The translations under genes were made by a program, and so were the position numbers. Source: Gemmatimonadota bacterium (GTDB lineage: Bacteria; Gemmatimonadota; Gemmatimonadetes; Gemmatimonadales; GWC2-71-9). Taken from it: DNA of 33,987 nucleotides. This document shows positions 14,976-22,967 of this stretch, piece by piece. The stretch spans positions 1-33,987 of the forward strand of contig QHTZ01000104.1 in the NCBI GenBank assembly GCA_003221005.1. The letters run 5' to 3'. Under the pieces are notes generated by a model that worked only from the letters and a program-made list of their open reading frames with translations, made no database searches and was not told the origin of the DNA. Position 1 is the first letter of the stretch, and each line of letters starts with the position of its first letter.

Positions 14976-16000
14976 CCCGGCGGCTCGTGGTGGACTTGGC
15001 TTCACCGGTCGCCGCGTGGCGCATTCCGGCGGCAGCGATGCAGGCGATCCGAGCCGCGCTGGGGGCGGGCTGGGAGGTGGTGGAAACGGGCGCTCCCGCC
15101 GCGAGCGACGGGGATGGCGGGTCGGGCTCCCCTGAGGCGGCGCGCGCCGTCCGGGGCGCGGAGATCTATCTCGGCTATGGAGTGCCCCCGGGCGTCGTGG
15201 CCGCCGGCCGTGGTACCCTCAAGTGGGTGCACAGCGGCACGGCGGGTGTGGGGGCGAGCCTGCCGCACCTCGCGGGCACAGGGATCGTGCTGACCAATTC
15301 GGCCGCGGTCCATGCGGAGCCGCTCGCCGATTGGGTGATCGCCGCGATCGCCTATTTCGCGCGCGGCCTCGACCGGATGCGGGAGGCCCAGGCGGCGGGA
15401 CGGTGGGCCCGGGACGACTTCACGGAGCTCCGCGTGCCGGTAGTCGAGTTCCGGGACCTCCGCGTGGGCGTGTTGGGGCTCGGCGGGATCGGCGCCGCGG
15501 TGGCGCGCCGTGCGCTGGCGCTCGGGATGCGCGTCGCTGGAGTGCGGCGGCGGCCGGAGCAGGGCGGCCCGGCGGGCGTAAGCTGGGTGGGCGGCCCGGC
15601 GGAGCTGCCGCGTCTCGCCGCTGACAGTGACTGCCTCGTCATCGCCGCGCCGCACACCCCCGAGACCGCCGCCGTCGTGGACCGTGCTGTGCTGCGGCGG
15701 CTGCCCGAAGGCGCGGTCGTCCTGAACGTTGCCCGTGGTTCGCTGCTGGACGAGGACGCGCTGCTCGAGCTGCTCGACAGCGGCCGGCTGCGGGGCGCCG
15801 CGCTGGACGTCTTTGCAAAGGAGCCGCTCCCGCCCGGCCATCCCTTCTGGCGGCACCCCCGCGTACTGGTGAGCCCGCACGCGAGCGCCGTGACCGCCCG
15901 TTTCTGGGAGCGCGAAACGGGGCTCATTCTCGAGAACATCCGGCGCTATCTTGCAGGGGCGCCCCTGCTGAACGTGGTGGATCAGGAGGCCGGTTACTGA
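14972..16000 (+). CDS. D-2-hydroxyacid dehydrogenase family protein
   Basis: Rossmann GVLGLGGIG, LNVARG, AALDVF..EPL, SPHAS; GTGA overlap with MgtC. Confidence 0.92.
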   Translation: MTRRLVVDLASPVAAWRIPAAAMQAIRAALGAGWEVVETGAPAASDGDGGSGSPEAARAVRGAEIYLGYGVPPGVVAAGRGTLKWVHSGTAGVGASLPHLAGTGIVLTNSAAVHAEPLADWVIAAIAYFARGLDRMREAQAAGRWARDDFTELRVPVVEFRDLRVGVLGLGGIGAAVARRALALGMRVAGVRRRPEQGGPAGVSWVGGPAELPRLAADSDCLVIAAPHTPETAAVVDRAVLRRLPEGAVVLNVARGSLLDEDALLELLDSGRLRGAALDVFAKEPLPPGHPFWRHPRVLVSPHASAVTARFWERETGLILENIRRYLAGAPLLNVVDQEAGY

Positions 16001-17217
16001 TGGACGAGGCGAAGTCGCGCAGCCCGAGGGTGAGCGGCCAGGCGGCACCCCCACAGGGCGGCATCGAGAAGATCATCAAGGCAGCCGTCGACCGCGGCGC
16101 TTCGGATCTGCACATCAAGGCGGGGGACGTGTTTCGCGCCCGCATCGACGGCAAGCTCGTCCCGCTCACCAAACAGCGCCTCACGCCGGAGCAGACCAAG
16201 GCCATTGCCCTGCGGCTGATGCCGAACGAGGATGACCAGGCCACGATTGACCGCATCCGCGACTACGACTGCTCGTGGGGGATGCCCGGCCTCGGCCGTT
16301 TCCGCGTCAACATTCTGCGACAGCGCTCGTCGTTCATGATCGTGATGCGGGTCATCCCCTTCGACGTGCCGTCGTTCGAGTCGCTCCACCTTCCCGCGGT
16401 CCTGCGCACGGTTGCGTCCACCGACCACGGCCTCGTGCTCGTGACGGGGCCCGCCGGGTCGGGGAGAAGCTCGACGATGGCCGCGATGGTGAACCATATC
16501 AATCAAAATCAGCAGCGGCACATCGTGACGCTGGAAAACCCGATTGAGTTCCTGCATCGCGACATCAACTCCTCGGTGACCCAGCGCGAGATCGGGGTGG
16601 ACACGGACGACTACCGACGGGGCCTGCGCGCTGCGCTGCGTCAGGACCCCGATGTGGTGCTGATCGGGGACATCCGGGACGCACCGATTGTGGACACAGC
16701 GCTGCGGGCCGCCGAAACAGGGCACCTGGTCATCTCGGCGCTCGACACGCCCGATGCCGTCACGACGGTCGCGCGCGTGATCGCCATGTATCCTGCCGAA
16801 GAGCAGGTCGCGCTGCGGCTGCGCCTCTCCGAGTCGCTGCAGGCGGTCGTGTCCCAGCGGTTGCTCCCCCGGGCCGACGGCCGCGGCCGCGTAGCTGCCG
16901 TCGAGGTGCTGATCTGCACCGGGGCCGCCCGCGAGATGATCCGGGACGCGCGGCGGCTGCCGGAGCTGCGCGCGCACATCCGTACCTCGCGCGAGCGCCA
17001 CGGCGCGCAGACGCTGGACCAGCACTTGTTCGATCTCGTCGCCGAGGGCGTGGTCACGCACGAGGCCGCGATCGCGGCGGCGCCCGTGCCGGCCGAGTTC
17101 GAGCAGATGATACGTGGCCTGGACCGCCGGCCCCCCCCTGCGCGGCCGGCGGAAACGGCGGCCGCTCGCGAAGCCCCCATCCCGGACGACCTGTCGCGCA
17201 TGCTTCCCGGTTCGTGA
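16000..17217 (+). CDS. PilT/PilU-family type IV pilus ATPase with degenerate catalytic motifs
   Basis: ASDLHIK, GRFRVN, TLENPIEF.H, QREIG.DT, ALRQDPDV, AAETGHLV, SQRL. Walker A reads GSGRS, Walker B reads GDIRD. Confidence 0.9.
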   Translation: MDEAKSRSPRVSGQAAPPQGGIEKIIKAAVDRGASDLHIKAGDVFRARIDGKLVPLTKQRLTPEQTKAIALRLMPNEDDQATIDRIRDYDCSWGMPGLGRFRVNILRQRSSFMIVMRVIPFDVPSFESLHLPAVLRTVASTDHGLVLVTGPAGSGRSSTMAAMVNHINQNQQRHIVTLENPIEFLHRDINSSVTQREIGVDTDDYRRGLRAALRQDPDVVLIGDIRDAPIVDTALRAAETGHLVISALDTPDAVTTVARVIAMYPAEEQVALRLRLSESLQAVVSQRLLPRADGRGRVAAVEVLICTGAAREMIRDARRLPELRAHIRTSRERHGAQTLDQHLFDLVAEGVVTHEAAIAAAPVPAEFEQMIRGLDRRPPPARPAETAAAREAPIPDDLSRMLPGS

Positions 17218-19267: not shown

Positions 19268-20548
19268 ATGTTCGGACCGAAAACCCACTGTGTGGTGGTG
19301 GTCGGCGCCCAATGGGGCGACGAGGGCAAGGGCAAGATCGTCGACGTGCTCGCCGAGCGCGCCGACCTCGTCGTACGCTACCAGGGCGGCGCCAACGCCG
19401 GGCACACCGTGGACACGGGCGCCGGCGAGTTCGTGTTGCACCAGATCCCCTCGGGGATTATCCAGGGCGCGGTGTGCCTCGTCGGAAATGGGGTCGCGCT
19501 CGATCCGGAGACGTTCTTCACCGAGCTCGACGCGCTGGAATCGCGCGGCGTGCGGACCGACCACAAGCTGTACGTCTCCGACCGTGCGCACCTCACCCTG
19601 CCGTACCACAAGCTGCTGGACCGCGCGCGCGAGCGCCGCGAGCAGATCGGCACCACAGGTCGTGGCATCGGGCCGACGTACGAAGACAAGTACGGCCGCC
19701 GGGGGATCCGTGTGGGCGACCTGCGCCACCTGGGCCGGGCGCGCGAGCTCGTGTGCGCGCGGGTGCAGGCGGCGAACGAATTCCTCGGCCTGCTCGGCGC
19801 GGCCGAGCGGGCAGACTCCGGTGAGCACGTCGGCCTGCTCGAGCGGCTGGCGCCCAGACTGCTCCCGATCGCGGTGGACGCGGGGCGCGTCGTGTACGAG
19901 GCGCTCCAGCGCGGCGAGTCGGTGCTGCTCGAGGGGGCCCAGGGCGCGTTGCTGGATGTGGACCATGGAACGTACCCCTACGTGACGTCGTCCCACACGA
20001 CGGCGGGGGGCGCGGCGGTGGGGGCGGGGATTGGGCCCACCGCCATCGACGCCGTGATGGGGGTCGTGAAGGCCTACACGACGCGGGTGGGAAACGGCCC
20101 GCTGCCGACGGAGGCGGAGCCCCCGGTGGCCGAGCGCCTGCGCGACCTGGGAGGAGAGTTCGGCGCCACGACGGGACGGCCGCGCCGCTGCGGGTGGTTC
20201 GACGCCGTCGTGGTGCGCTACGCCGTCCGGGTGAACGGCCTGACGGCGCTCGCGGTCACGAAGCTCGACGTGCTCGACTCTTTCTCCGAGATCCCGGTCT
20301 GCGTGGGTTACCGCCTCGAGGGCGAGCCACTCGACAACATGCCCGCCGAGGTCGAGCGCCTGGCCCGCGTGGAGCCGGTGTACGAGTGTCTGCCGGGCTG
20401 GAAGCGCCCGCTCAGTGGCATTCGGCGGCTCGCGGAGCTCCCCCCGGCGGCGCGCGCCTATCTGGACCGGCTTCAAGACCTCGCCGGGGCGCCGATCCAC
20501 TACGTGAGCGTCGGCACCCGGCGGGACCAGATCGTCGAAGTCCCATGA
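19268..20548 (+). CDS. purA: Adenylosuccinate synthetase
   Basis: GAQWGDEGKGK, QGGANAGHT, IGTTGRGIGP.Y.DK, EGAQG.LLD.DHGTYPYVTSS, TTGRPRRCGW. Confidence 0.99.
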   Translation: MFGPKTHCVVVVGAQWGDEGKGKIVDVLAERADLVVRYQGGANAGHTVDTGAGEFVLHQIPSGIIQGAVCLVGNGVALDPETFFTELDALESRGVRTDHKLYVSDRAHLTLPYHKLLDRARERREQIGTTGRGIGPTYEDKYGRRGIRVGDLRHLGRARELVCARVQAANEFLGLLGAAERADSGEHVGLLERLAPRLLPIAVDAGRVVYEALQRGESVLLEGAQGALLDVDHGTYPYVTSSHTTAGGAAVGAGIGPTAIDAVMGVVKAYTTRVGNGPLPTEAEPPVAERLRDLGGEFGATTGRPRRCGWFDAVVVRYAVRVNGLTALAVTKLDVLDSFSEIPVCVGYRLEGEPLDNMPAEVERLARVEPVYECLPGWKRPLSGIRRLAELPPAARAYLDRLQDLAGAPIHYVSVGTRRDQIVEVP

Positions 20549-21564
20549 GCCAGGGTGCGGCCCCGATGCTTGACCTCGCGGTGATCGGAGCCGGGCCGTG
20601 CGGCCTGGCGGTTGGTGTAGCCGCGAAGCGCAGTGGCCTCACCGCCGCGCTGTTCGACACGGGCTCCATCGTCTCGAGCCTGCTCCGCTATCCCCTGTAT
20701 ATGACGTTCTTCTCAACCCCTGAGCGGTTGGAGATCGCCGGCGTGCCGTTCGTCACGAGCGGCGAGAAGCCGACCCGACGCGAGGCGCTCACCTACTACC
20801 GAAAAGTGGCGGAATACTTTCAGCTCGATGTGCGGCAGTATCGCGAAGTCGTGCAGGTGCGGCGCACGGACGGTGGGTTCGAGCTCCTGGCCAGCCATCC
20901 GGGAACCCCGCCGGAGACGGTCGCGGCCCGGAACCTCGTGTATGCGACGGGATACTTCGAGTCCCCGAATCTGCTCGGCGTCCCCGGCGAGGACCTGCCC
21001 CATGTCTCTCACTTCTTCGTCGAGGCGCACCCCTACTGGCGGCAAAGTGTCGTGATCGTGGGGGGCGGGAACAGCGCGGTTGAGGCGGCACTCGAGCTGC
21101 ACCGGGTGGGCGCACGCGTGACTATCGTCCACTTCCTCGAACAGTTCGACCGGGGCGTCAAGTCGTGGGTCTTGCCGGACATCACGAACCGCGTGAAGGA
21201 CGGCAGCGTTGCCGTTCGGTGGCGCAGCCGCGTGGTCCGGATTGAGCCCGCGTGCGTCGTCATCCGGTCGGAGGGTGATGGCTCGAACGAGAGCCTCGCC
21301 GCGGATTTTGTCCTCGCGCTCACGGGGTACCGCGCCGATCAACGCCTGTTGCGCGCCGCGGGCGTGAGCATTGATGAGACGACCGGCGTGCCCAAGCACG
21401 TCGCGGGGACGATGGAGACGAACGTTCCCGGCATTTATATCGCCGGCGTGCTGTCGTGCGGCTACGACGCCAACCGAGTCTTCATCGAGAACGGCCGGGC
21501 GCACGGGGACCTGATTTGCGCCCATATCAAAGCAAAACCCCCCAGAGTTGCCCCTGGGGGGTGA
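20545..21564 (+). CDS. ypdA: YpdA-family putative bacillithiol disulfide reductase
   Basis: IGAGPCGL, YP..MTFFST.ERLEI..VPF, KPTRREAL.YY, GGGNSAVEAAL, FIENGR.H; ATGA overlap with purA. Confidence 0.9.
   Translation: MSQGAAPMLDLAVIGAGPCGLAVGVAAKRSGLTAALFDTGSIVSSLLRYPLYMTFFSTPERLEIAGVPFVTSGEKPTRREALTYYRKVAEYFQLDVRQYREVVQVRRTDGGFELLASHPGTPPETVAARNLVYATGYFESPNLLGVPGEDLPHVSHFFVEAHPYWRQSVVIVGGGNSAVEAALELHRVGARVTIVHFLEQFDRGVKSWVLPDITNRVKDGSVAVRWRSRVVRIEPACVVIRSEGDGSNESLAADFVLALTGYRADQRLLRAAGVSIDETTGVPKHVAGTMETNVPGIYIAGVLSCGYDANRVFIENGRAHGDLICAHIKAKPPRVAPGG
21529..21562 (-). terminator. Strong intrinsic terminator on the minus strand, overlapping the ypdA 3' end
   Basis: Minus strand ACCCCCCAGGG-GCAA-CUCUGGGGGGU then UUUGCUUU: 11-bp stem, GNRA loop, U-tract only on the minus strand. 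Confidence 0.85.
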
Positions 21565-21635
21565 TCGCCTGCCCGACATCGTGCGCCCTAGAACCCGATG
21601 TGAGCGAGACGAAAGTCGCTGCTTGGGGCGCCATG

Positions 21636-21674
21636 CAAAGCGGCCCCGCGCTCTCTCAAGGGCGTGGGGCCGCT
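21636..21674 (-). terminator. Riboswitch expression-platform hairpin (candidate terminator)
   Basis: Minus strand AGCGGCCCCACGC...GCGCGGGGCCGCU followed by a short UU(GC) tail, directly after the aptamer. Confidence 0.55.
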
Positions 21675-21678
21675 GCCG

Positions 21679-21762
21679 ACTCTGGCAGCTGGGCTGTCTC
21701 GTTCCGCGAGACCCCTTGGCTTTGCGCCCCGTCGTCACCGACGGTTTGCCCTTGAACAGAGT
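21679..21762 (-). promoter_or_regulatory. Cyclic di-GMP-I (GEMM) riboswitch aptamer
   Basis: Minus strand ACUCUG-UUCAAGGGCAAA-CCGUCG-GUGA-CGACGG-GGCGCAAAGCC-AAGGGGUCUCG-CGGAA-CGAGACAGCCCAGCUGC-CAGAGU. Has a perfect 6-bp P1, GGGCAAACC and GCGCAAAGCC signatures, a GNRA-capped stem, and G20/A47/C92 equivalents intact. Confidence 0.9.
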
Positions 21763-21780
21763 GAACCGCGGGTGAATCAG

Positions 21781-21796
21781 GCAAGAACAGTGCCGA
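21781..21796 (-). promoter_or_regulatory. Sigma54 (-24/-12) promoter driving the riboswitch transcript
   Basis: Minus strand tcGGCACtgttcTTGC (GG-N10-GC); predicted +1 near 21769, about 7 nt before aptamer P1. Confidence 0.7.
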
Positions 21797-21804
21797 GTCA
21801 GTAA

Positions 21805-21875
21805 TGCACGTCACAGTGCGGAGATTTCATAGGTGCGCACGAATAGGCGTATAGCATTATGCGTCATTTAGCGCA
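21805..21875. promoter_or_regulatory. Candidate upstream activator (bEBP) sites
   Basis: Imperfect palindromes TGCAC-N6-GTGCG (21805-20), CGCAC-N6-GCGTA (21836-51) and TGCGT-N6-GCGCA (21860-75) in an AT-richer patch. Confidence 0.4.
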
Positions 21876-21884
21876 TTGTGCGGC

Positions 21885-22967
21885 ATGACGATGGTTGTCT
21901 TGGTCGCTCCTGCAGCATTCAAGGGATCACTTGGCCCTCGCCAAGTAGCGGACGCCCTCGCCGCTGGCGTGCGCCTAGCTGTCCCGGATGCGCGGGTGCT
22001 CCACTGCCCGATCTCGGACGGCGGCGACGGCCTCCTCGAGGCGGTCCTCCCTCCGGAGTCGCTCCGCGAGCGCGTGGCCGTCACGGGGCCGCTCGGTTCC
22101 AAGGTCGAGGGCCTGCTGGGGTGGCTCGACAGTGACACGGCGATGTTCGAAAGCGCGACTGCCTGCGGGATCGCGCTGCTGCGGCCAGATCAGCTCGACC
22201 CCCTCCATACAACCACGCGTGGCGTAGGCGAGCTCATTTGGGAAGCGGTCGATCGCGGCGCCAAGACGGTAGTCGTGGGGCTCGGTGGCTCGGCTACGGT
22301 CGACGGGGGCACGGGCGCCGCCCGGGGGCTGGGATGGACTCTGCGCGATGACTCCGGAACGCCGTTGCCGGAGGGCGGGAGCTCGCTGCGCGGCCTCGCG
22401 AGCTTGGACGGGGGGTGGGGGCTTGCCGCCCAGGTGGTGGCGCTCGCGGATGTGACGACGCCGCTCACCGGGGTGGAGGGCGCGGCACCGGTGTTCGGGC
22501 CCCAGAAGGGGGCCACGCCCGAGGGGGTGGCGCAGCTGGCTGCGGGGCTCGAGGTGCTGGCGGCGCATTTCGCTCGCCTCGACCGCGCCGACCTCGCCAC
22601 CCTGCCCGGGGGTGGAGCGGCCGGGGGCCTCGGGGCTGGGCTTGCCTTCTTCGCCAGGGCACAGCTCGTCCAGGGCGCCGACTGGGTGCTCGAGCGGGTC
22701 GGATTCGACGCTGCGCTGGCCAAGGCCGACTTGCTGATCACGGGGGAGGGCTCGTTCGACCGCACGTCACTCGTGGGGAAGGCGTCGGGGGTTGTGCTGC
22801 GGCGCGGGCAGGCGGCGAGGAAACGCGTAGCCGTGGTCGCGGGGAGGGTCGAGGGTCTGATCGGCGTGCACGCGCTCGACGGTGAGGGGCGGACGCTCGA
22901 TGCCCGGGGGATTGCCGAGCTCGCCGCGCGCGTCACGCGCGAGGCGTTCGGGTTGCCGGCGCCCTAG
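21885..22967 (+). CDS. Glycerate kinase (GlxK/GarK family)
   Basis: APAAFKGSL, PISDGGDG, GLGGSATVDGG.G, FGPQKGA, GAAGGLG, ITGEGSFD. Confidence 0.93.
   Translation: MTMVVLVAPAAFKGSLGPRQVADALAAGVRLAVPDARVLHCPISDGGDGLLEAVLPPESLRERVAVTGPLGSKVEGLLGWLDSDTAMFESATACGIALLRPDQLDPLHTTTRGVGELIWEAVDRGAKTVVVGLGGSATVDGGTGAARGLGWTLRDDSGTPLPEGGSSLRGLASLDGGWGLAAQVVALADVTTPLTGVEGAAPVFGPQKGATPEGVAQLAAGLEVLAAHFARLDRADLATLPGGGAAGGLGAGLAFFARAQLVQGADWVLERVGFDAALAKADLLITGEGSFDRTSLVGKASGVVLRRGQAARKRVAVVAGRVEGLIGVHALDGEGRTLDARGIAELAARVTREAFGLPAP

Follow-up and report, generated by a model that had tools for sequence, protein, structure and literature searches.

The unit between the oxidoreductase and glycerate kinase genes

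The window is a stretch of 33,987 nucleotides (contig QHTZ01000104.1) from a soil Gemmatimonadales genome of 2.79 Mb, which comprises 141 contigs and is 94% complete. Its minus strand carries a compact unit (21529-21881) in which dyads, a sigma-54-type promoter, a cyclic di-GMP (c-di-GMP) riboswitch aptamer of class I, a platform hairpin, a second hairpin and a terminator follow one another in this order. Both neighbouring genes lie on the plus strand, as initially annotated, with the oxidoreductase gene ending at 21564 and the glycerate kinase gene starting at about 21885. We consider the unit to be probably a c-di-GMP-gated, sigma-54-dependent gene for a small RNA (sRNA) of a new, family-restricted class. 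The features of the locus are the following.

21873-21881, minus strand: candidate upstream activator site 1, dyad GCACAATGC (GCA-N3-TGC), at about -108 from the predicted start, abutting the glycerate kinase start codon
21854-21862, minus strand: candidate upstream activator site 2, dyad GCATAATGC, at about -89 from the predicted start, 19 bp from site 1
21781-21794, minus strand: sigma-54-type promoter GGCACTGTTCTTGC with -24 GG and -12 GC elements, predicted start near 21769
21680-21761, minus strand: c-di-GMP-I aptamer including P1, in which CUCUG (21761-21757) pairs with CAGAG (21684-21680)
21636-21674, minus strand: expression-platform hairpin AGCGGCCCC...GGGGCCGCU with a short U tract, a predicted premature terminator; stem 21674-21639
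21528-21615, minus strand: whole conserved sRNA module, 107.6 bits with covariance model R1
21566-21611, minus strand: sRNA stem-loop with a 15-bp imperfect stem (21611-21596 with 21581-21566) and the 14-nt loop GGUUCUAGGGCGCA (21595-21582)
21529-21562, minus strand: intrinsic terminator with GCAA loop and T tail, hairpin 21562-21537, overlapping the last 12 codons of the convergent gene
20194-21564, plus strand: convergent flanking gene, pyridine nucleotide-disulphide oxidoreductase (Pyr_redox_3), given as the maximal open reading frame (ORF), domain from residue 127
21885-22967, plus strand: divergent flanking gene, glycerate kinase, from the ORF list and Pfam

The aptamer, initially proposed from the sequence alone, gives a significant match to the Rfam covariance model RF01051 at 21681-21760 (minus strand), with 56.0 bits against a gathering cut-off of 35, an E-value of 1.6e-8 and coverage of model positions 1-87 of 87. 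This is the sole Rfam match at gathering level in the window. The variant model RF03167 scores 55.3 bits, under its cut-off of 59, and the A after GCGC is retained, unlike in the GGC-variant consensus. The blocks AGGGCAAACC, CGCAAAGC and GCUGCC fit the family consensus and are invariant in 33/33 aligned relatives of the long-linker class described below. The ligand-pocket positions are presumably G20, A47 and C92 in Vc2 numbering. Judged from its sequence, the aptamer is a genuine c-di-GMP-I riboswitch, for which ligand binding is predicted. It is not situated in the 5' leader of an mRNA: no conserved ORF precedes the terminator, and the next genes are on the other strand.

Among the related loci (L numbers; G numbers denote genomes), the aptamers of L118, L122 and L123 exceed the gathering score of the c-di-GMP-I-GGC model (60.6-67.2 bits). 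The canonical A occupies the variant position, with CGCAAAGC kept in L122 and L123 and the same block present in the folded sequence of L118. These scores look like cross-talk between the models, not a true variant.

A conserved hairpin module behind the riboswitch

The interval 21563-21635, described in the initial annotation only as structured sequence, contains a hairpin that is conserved and covaries among relatives, with no intervening conserved ORF. When 21500-21900 was compared by BLAST with 60 relatives, 18 gave a match, among them 6/6 of the same genus. Across the more distant genera, conservation is highest in 21528-21611 and not in the aptamer. An alignment of 47 distinct copies, from which the covariance model R1 was built, displays a 15-bp imperfect stem, the (nearly) invariant loop GGUUCUAGGGCGCA and the terminator. 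The conservation does not derive from an overlapping coding sequence, since the convergent gene encodes adenylosuccinate synthetase or penicillin amidase elsewhere. The final GNRA-capped terminator is the only site that a terminator scan found in 21300-22100 (1 versus 0.6 expected).

The predicted structure is reflected in the pattern of substitutions. In an alignment of 78 matches (66 distinct), which is fitted to R1 and hence biased towards the model structure, 98.1% of the cells are paired and 14/24 pairs include a compensatory change. None of 500 shuffles reaches any of the measures, and slid registers are 38-51% paired. The terminator helix (helix 2) is 100% paired, with 7/9 pairs compensatory. 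Divergent members scoring 42-68 bits have the inner stem changed by compensatory pairs and retain UUCUAGGGCGC; the loop and its closing pairs are invariant across genera in which the stems covary. A permissive Rfam scan of 21480-21920 returned matches at chance level only, the best overlapping one being anti-hemB (12.4 bits, E 3.2).

Matches to R1 were found in 39/151 genomes of one Gemmatimonadales family, corresponding to 21/78 genera, with a single match in 38 of the 39 positive genomes. The remaining genome, G113, has two riboswitch-sRNA units on different contigs (L042; L048/L107), both of the short-linker class. A phylum-wide sample gave matches in 19/71 genomes of the same family, in 1/31 of the sister family (32 bits, weak) and in 0/48 of ten further families. 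The exact core pattern, searched in one genome for each of 185,579 species, occurs in 61 stretches, 58 of which are labelled Gemmatimonadetes, -ales, -aceae or -ota; one belongs to an uncultured bacterium and has the same architecture. Matches in Arthrobacter and Kiloniellaceae were rejected as chance, as the surrounding hairpins are lacking. By these comparisons the module is a new family of predicted sRNAs, restricted to one Gemmatimonadales family and mostly single-copy.

To describe the arrangement of the module, 74 unique loci were parsed, of which 72 are assessable (two aptamer-less ones are located at a contig end). The pattern parse left out L050, L060, L076, L108 and L128 (the last at 42 bits); an aptamer is present in L060 and L076 (Rfam) and in L108 (nhmmer). 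The counts include three genomes flagged unpublished, G020 (L013, L106), G098 (L109) and G162 (L092), and no conclusion is based solely on these. The riboswitch precedes the module in 52 unique loci, and the aptamer is absent in 20/72 assessable ones. Both forms share the promoter motif:

With aptamer: GGYAY-N5-TKGC in 48/52 loci, 163-220 nt before the core
Without aptamer: the same motif in 15/20 assessable loci, 50-63 nt before the core and about 10 nt upstream of the predicted sRNA start

When the family sample is counted by genome, the aptamer is present in 28/37 (15 genera) and absent in 9/37 (5 genera), and no genus is mixed.

The existence of the second form bears on one proposal of the initial annotation, namely that the unit acts as a c-di-GMP sponge or store, with a functional aptamer and the remainder serving as scaffold and terminator. 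The ORF-less riboswitch sRNA merRNA was proposed to absorb c-di-GMP (PMC3627812), and the aptamer is intact and conserved here. Nevertheless, the downstream hairpin is better conserved than the aptamer and persists aptamer-less in 20/72 loci and 9/37 genomes. A passive sponge would not need the conserved anti-terminator pairing described below, and the low depth of RNA contigs on the riboswitch part (2.8-25) is a further, weak argument. We consider the sponge very improbable.

A FastTree phylogeny with 58 rows, built from the divergently oriented glycerate kinase, served to place the two forms. Rows lacking the riboswitch are nested among riboswitch-bearing ones, the riboswitch-less form requires 3 changes, and the well-supported branches force at least 2. 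The tree is midpoint-rooted and contains five long-branch rows that may not be glycerate kinase; 16/74 unique loci are outside it, having no sigma-54 motif or no upstream ORF of 250 amino acids. We read this as repeated loss of the riboswitch, at least 2-3 times, with the sRNA kept, so that the riboswitch would constitute a plug-in module on an sRNA gene.

A divergent clade (L120-L127; genera g9, g66, g69 and g71) has the sRNA directly downstream of a gene for a BY-kinase-like P-loop ATPase with a tyrosine-rich tail, on the same strand, and convergent with purA. The promoters of this clade look sigma-70-like (TTGACA-N17-TAnnTT), and the riboswitch is found in four loci and absent in four, so the pairing of riboswitch and sRNA recurs under two promoter types. 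The BY-kinase-like neighbour hints at a link to polysaccharide synthesis.

The changing neighbourhood also bears on the possibility of cis-antisense action or interference, either on the 3' end of the oxidoreductase gene, which the initial annotation named ypdA, or on plus-strand read-through towards glycerate kinase. The terminator does overlap the last 12 codons of the convergent gene, and read-through across the unit is conceivable because the hairpin lacks a T tail on the plus strand. Riboswitches for c-di-GMP are also the class most often antisense to the next gene, with 152 antisense versus 2,554 sense cases in one survey (PMC9943018). Against this, the convergent gene is an oxidoreductase, purA or penicillin amidase depending on the genus, while the RNA module is constant and the overlap is confined to the terminator, and the divergent clade has neighbours other than glycerate kinase. 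An antisense role is very improbable. As a side observation, the last 12 oxidoreductase codons are the complement of the sRNA terminator hairpin (21529-21564).

The same loci speak to two readings that involve a protein. An ATG-started frame of 35 codons (21634-21527) is present in the window, and 6 other units have a similar frame, which could make a small protein the regulated product. We rejected this ORF because the frame is not conserved: an in-frame ATG occurs in 7/72 unique units and any start codon in 26/72, and the stop positions vary. Moreover, the loop region does not vary even at third-codon positions, substitutions in the stems compensate each other, and there is no Pfam match. 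A small protein as the product is extremely improbable. The suggestion that the unit is the remnant of a deleted riboswitch-controlled gene has nothing in its favour beyond the missing ORF itself. No conserved ORF follows the riboswitch in the 72 assessable loci, and the ORF-less arrangement is kept in 52 unique loci from at least 15 genera with aptamer, platform and terminator intact, leaving this reading next to no probability.

The initial annotation had called the switch an orphan with no regulated gene. This stands as far as protein genes are concerned, but a conserved sRNA module follows the expression platform, and the term orphan is misleading because the regulated gene is the sRNA. 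Among the roles that had been proposed, it is the c-di-GMP-gated small RNA that the comparative data support, with a conserved module that also occurs riboswitch-less behind the same promoter.

Control of transcription and direction of the switch

The sigma-54-type promoter of the initial annotation was recovered as GGCACTGTTCTTGC at 21794-21781. Its motif, GGYAY-N5-TKGC, is present in 63/72 assessable loci of the relatives, and the host genome encodes rpoN together with 9 strong enhancer-binding proteins (EBPs), the activators of sigma-54. Palindromic candidate activator sites had been placed at 21805-21875. Conserved dyads do exist, but they are located at or just beyond the upstream end of that span, with site 1 extending to 21881. 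At least one strict GCA-N3-TGC at the fixed offsets (-87 and -67 from the promoter GG) was found in 46/63 sigma-54-type loci, compared to 0.05 per locus in shuffles, and adjacent dyads are 19-20 bp apart in 16/19 spacings counted. In many relatives the dyads read TTGCATTATGCAA, identical to the LuxO consensus TTGCAW3TGCAA.

With two upstream dyads and a sigma-54 promoter, transcription should need an EBP. The host genome contains 31 GGCAY-N5-TTGC sites, and upstream dyads are found only at the site of this unit. As it is the only promoter of its type in the genome with dyads, a dedicated activator seems likely from the sequence. A semi-conserved motif, GTGAYG-N4-6-TTAC, is located directly upstream of the -24 element (21798-21815 of the window, minus strand) in loci with the riboswitch as well as in those without it, and could be a site of the IHF type or for a second regulator.

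Contigs from RNA-labelled runs cover part of the unit. Six such runs contain part of the stretch, and four of them (X15-X18) were compared. In the soil metatranscriptome X15, contigs cover 21549-21785. One of these contigs is the following.

21600-21785, no strand: 186-nt X15 contig, 100% identical to the window, bridging the platform hairpin and joining the aptamer to the sRNA stem

Six short X15 contigs over 21549-21613 have a summed depth of up to 95, which may include relatives, as the core is conserved. The depth on the riboswitch part is low, 2.8-25. In a 137-nt X15 contig, the sRNA core is joined to an aptamer via a different 73-nt linker, indicating that it comes from a relative. Runs X16 and X17 cover the aptamer only, with loose ends (adapter or relative), and X18 has no contig on the stretch. 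Those parts of 21400-22000 that lack an X15 contig (the flanking genes and 21526-21546) carry no evidential weight.

Two classes of linker separate the aptamer from the sRNA: 37 are long (65-112 nt, including that of the window) and 15 are short (26-47 nt). The long linkers bear a GC-rich hairpin, GGCCCC-ACGCCCUGA..AGAGCG-GGGGCC, and the short ones are without such a hairpin. Its counterpart in the window, the platform hairpin, is present at 21674-21639 as initially annotated. In relatives with long linkers, it is followed by at least 5 T in 8 positions in 30/36 parsed cases (the parse failed for L010 and was faulty for L012 and L121).

Within the platform hairpin, the apical segment GCCCUUGAGAGAG shows complementarity to the 5' flank of the aptamer, and the pairing of the two could serve as an anti-terminator. 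The flank comprises the P1 strand CUCUG and UUCAAGGGC, and it can pair with the apical hairpin in 33/33 long-linker units of the sigma-54 type. The predicted duplexes have energies of -13.9 to -22 kcal/mol, versus about -5 to -10 for shuffled apical segments, and no unit has more than 7/200 shuffles that are as good. The pairs covary, with CAAGGGC/GCCCUUG, CAGGGC/GCCCUG or GUCCUG, and UUAAGGG/CCCUUAA in different units. This conserved complementarity predicts an OFF switch, in which ligand-stabilised P1 would free the hairpin and transcription would stop before the sRNA. We hold this direction to be moderately probable.

In the short-linker relatives, the output may be of a different kind. The ligand-bound state was modelled there, and not for the window, by folding only the RNA that follows the aptamer. 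In 10/15 units, the linker GCGCC..CCCGA occludes the sRNA loop, whose unpaired probability is 0.18-0.36 versus about 0.5 with shuffled linkers; such occlusion was seen in 0/5 long-linker units tested. The linker-loop duplex beats the shuffles in 7/15 short-linker units and the duplex of 5' flank and linker in 11/15. The linkers of L013, L014, L104, L110, L016, L074 and L118 show complementarity to the sRNA loop on both of its sides (duplex energies -21 to -29 kcal/mol); the clearest example, L013, comes from G020, one of the genomes flagged unpublished. As the loop UUCUAGGGC resembles the flank UUCAAGGGC, both could compete for the same linker. The models suggest, purely as a hypothesis, a second output mode in these relatives, masking of the loop, with the same sign.

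The likeness between loop and flank is also found in the window. The sRNA loop UUCUAGGGCGCAC (21582-21595) and the aptamer 5' flank and junction UUCAAGGGCAAAC (21746-21758) have 10/13 bases identical, and each has its complement in the GCCCU.GA element that belongs to the platform or linker. The resemblance may be coincidence or a trace of the recruitment of the riboswitch.

The host encodes at least 8 strong GGDEF genes. Its second c-di-GMP-I riboswitch (G000:C7:849-936, minus strand, locus L001, 63.7 bits) has the conventional position ahead of a gene for a protein with Big_2 Ig-like domains and is itself preceded, on the same strand, by a polysaccharide lyase 14 gene. In the window, a gene for a secretion or pilus ATPase of the T2SSE family (16000-17217, plus strand) is found 4 kb away from the unit.

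Proposed function and relation to known systems

The unit would thus be read as two inputs in series. When c-di-GMP is absent, the flank formed by CUCUG and UUCAAGGGC would pair with the apical part of the platform hairpin and disable it, allowing RNA polymerase to read through and to produce an RNA of about 240 nt with the sRNA hairpin. When c-di-GMP is bound, P1 and the junction would retain the 5' flank, the platform hairpin would form, and transcription would stop near 21636, giving an RNA of about 134 nt without the sRNA module. Production of the sRNA would then require that the activator be on while c-di-GMP is low, and the sRNA would act in trans via its invariant loop. More generally, we tentatively propose, at somewhat less than even probability, that in this family a second messenger controls a trans-acting RNA directly, at the level of RNA, by the rule "EBP signal AND NOT c-di-GMP", with an output that may be interchangeable between genera, being termination in long-linker units or loop masking in short-linker ones, and with the riboswitch as a plug-in module.

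A number of observations weigh against this reading or parts of it. The U tail of the platform hairpin in the window, CUUUGCAUG (CUUUG after the hairpin), has 4 T in 8 positions and is among the weakest, and the terminator scan of 21300-22100 did not call this hairpin. The folds disagree, as the anti-terminated form appears in the 146-nt fold only, and the 243-nt and 135-nt folds keep the platform hairpin. The OFF direction is drawn from predicted complementarity and from nothing else. The RNA contigs have neither strand nor ends and may include DNA carry-over, and the 186-nt contig reaches 21785, which is 16 nt further upstream than the sigma-54 start predicted at 21769. No EBP gene is among the 16 Pfam-scanned ORFs of the window (37 predicted), and tblastn of the 9 host EBPs against all fetched sRNA loci of relatives gave no match. 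A search for Hfq in the host genome (94% complete) did not find it. Searches of the genome and of 5 relatives turned up no convincing complementary target for the loop motif and no further copy of it. Finally, the related genomes are not independent, so that the counts overstate the support.

The searches for a target used several definitions. The longest exact complement of the loop in the genome, 12 nt on contig C48, overlaps, in antisense orientation, the stop codon of a gene that apparently encodes an outer-membrane protein, and was rejected as a target. Allowing 2 mismatches, the genome holds scattered matches in coding regions only and no second sense copy. Complements of 13 nt with at most 2 mismatches are rarer than the reversed control in the 5 relatives (G033, G016, G005, G009 and G073), and among the matches listed (G033, G016), the sole exact 13-nt match is the sRNA gene itself.

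It is possible, though rather unlikely, that the sRNA hairpin is instead a protein decoy, with the 14-nt loop and its closing pairs binding an RNA-binding regulator. Invariance of the loop and closing pairs above stems that covary across genera would suit such a role, as would the unsuccessful target searches in the genome and relatives and the missing Hfq, and the RNAs EutX and Rli55 provide a precedent. Against a decoy, the genome has no second copy of the loop motif that could be the natural site of the protein (1 site at 0-1 mismatch), and the module is a single hairpin, unlike the paired hexaloop hairpins of ANTAR substrates. In addition, the linker is complementary to the loop in 7/15 short-linker relatives, which argues that the loop is addressable by base pairing. 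For the mode of action of the sRNA, base pairing is slightly favoured over protein sequestration.

Of all riboswitch classes, those for c-di-GMP most frequently lack an obvious gene, as the 152 antisense cases of the survey illustrate (PMC9943018). As a small-RNA gene, the unit gives a concrete and comparatively supported answer for one of them: its regulated gene would be a small RNA. Riboswitch-gated sRNAs are known in very few cases, to which it would add one for c-di-GMP; within 350 bp, the unit joins two layers of signalling, one through a sigma-54 activator and the other through a second messenger. The predicted sRNA family is new, and it belongs to a soil phylum, Gemmatimonadota, whose RNA biology has hardly been described. 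Its natural forms, with or without the riboswitch and with two platform types, lend themselves to comparison by in vitro transcription and probing. Knowing what the invariant loop targets would reveal what these bacteria switch as c-di-GMP falls. A search of a limited literature collection, covering article texts with supplementary tables outside its scope, returned no c-di-GMP riboswitch placed before an sRNA in Gemmatimonadota or behind a sigma-54 promoter.

In architecture, a close parallel is found in EutX of Enterococcus faecalis and Rli55 of Listeria monocytogenes, where an adenosylcobalamin (AdoCbl) riboswitch decides whether a protein-binding hairpin domain is transcribed. That domain sequesters an ANTAR response regulator via paired hexaloop hairpins. 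Like these RNAs, the unit has a promoter, a riboswitch, a ligand-dependent premature terminator (here predicted), a functional RNA domain and a final terminator, with no ORF, and we infer that the sRNA domain is under ligand control of the EutX/Rli55 kind. The differences are the ligand, c-di-GMP and not AdoCbl, the sigma-54-type promoter, and the single hairpin with an invariant 14-nt loop in place of ANTAR-type dual hairpins.

The 445-nt merRNA of Bdellovibrio bacteriovorus is massively expressed and was proposed to be a c-di-GMP sponge (PMC3627812). It shares with the unit a c-di-GMP-I riboswitch within a lineage-restricted, ORF-less RNA. The accessible text on merRNA reports neither a conserved downstream module nor a riboswitch-less form (PMC3627812), whereas here the downstream hairpin is the conserved part and also occurs without an aptamer.

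At the promoter, the unit resembles the Qrr sRNA genes of Vibrio, which depend on sigma-54 and LuxO. Both have a short, terminator-ended sRNA transcribed from a sigma-54 promoter with dyads about 90-120 bp upstream, and the dyad core, TTGCA-W3-TGCAA in many relatives and GCA-N3-TGC in the window, matches the consensus given for LuxO at sigma-54-dependent Qrr genes, TTGCAW3TGCAA (PMC11443567). Unlike in the Qrr case, Hfq was not found here and a riboswitch lies between promoter and sRNA; the phylum is different, and no Qrr is among the 8 Rfam matches at E<=10 in 21480-21920. The unit works like Qrr at the promoter level only. By sequence, it belongs to none of the EutX/Rli55, merRNA and Qrr groups.

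In Vibrio cholerae, the sRNAs associated with the Vc2 riboswitch upstream of tfoY are described as carrying the riboswitch at their 3' end, where it acts on stability (bioRxiv 10.1101/617340). There, as predicted here, a c-di-GMP-I riboswitch controls the abundance of a non-coding RNA, but the present unit has it in 5' position, followed by a platform of the terminator type. Ordinary c-di-GMP-I mRNA leaders carry an aptamer of the same family; here no mRNA follows, and the regulated element would be an RNA.

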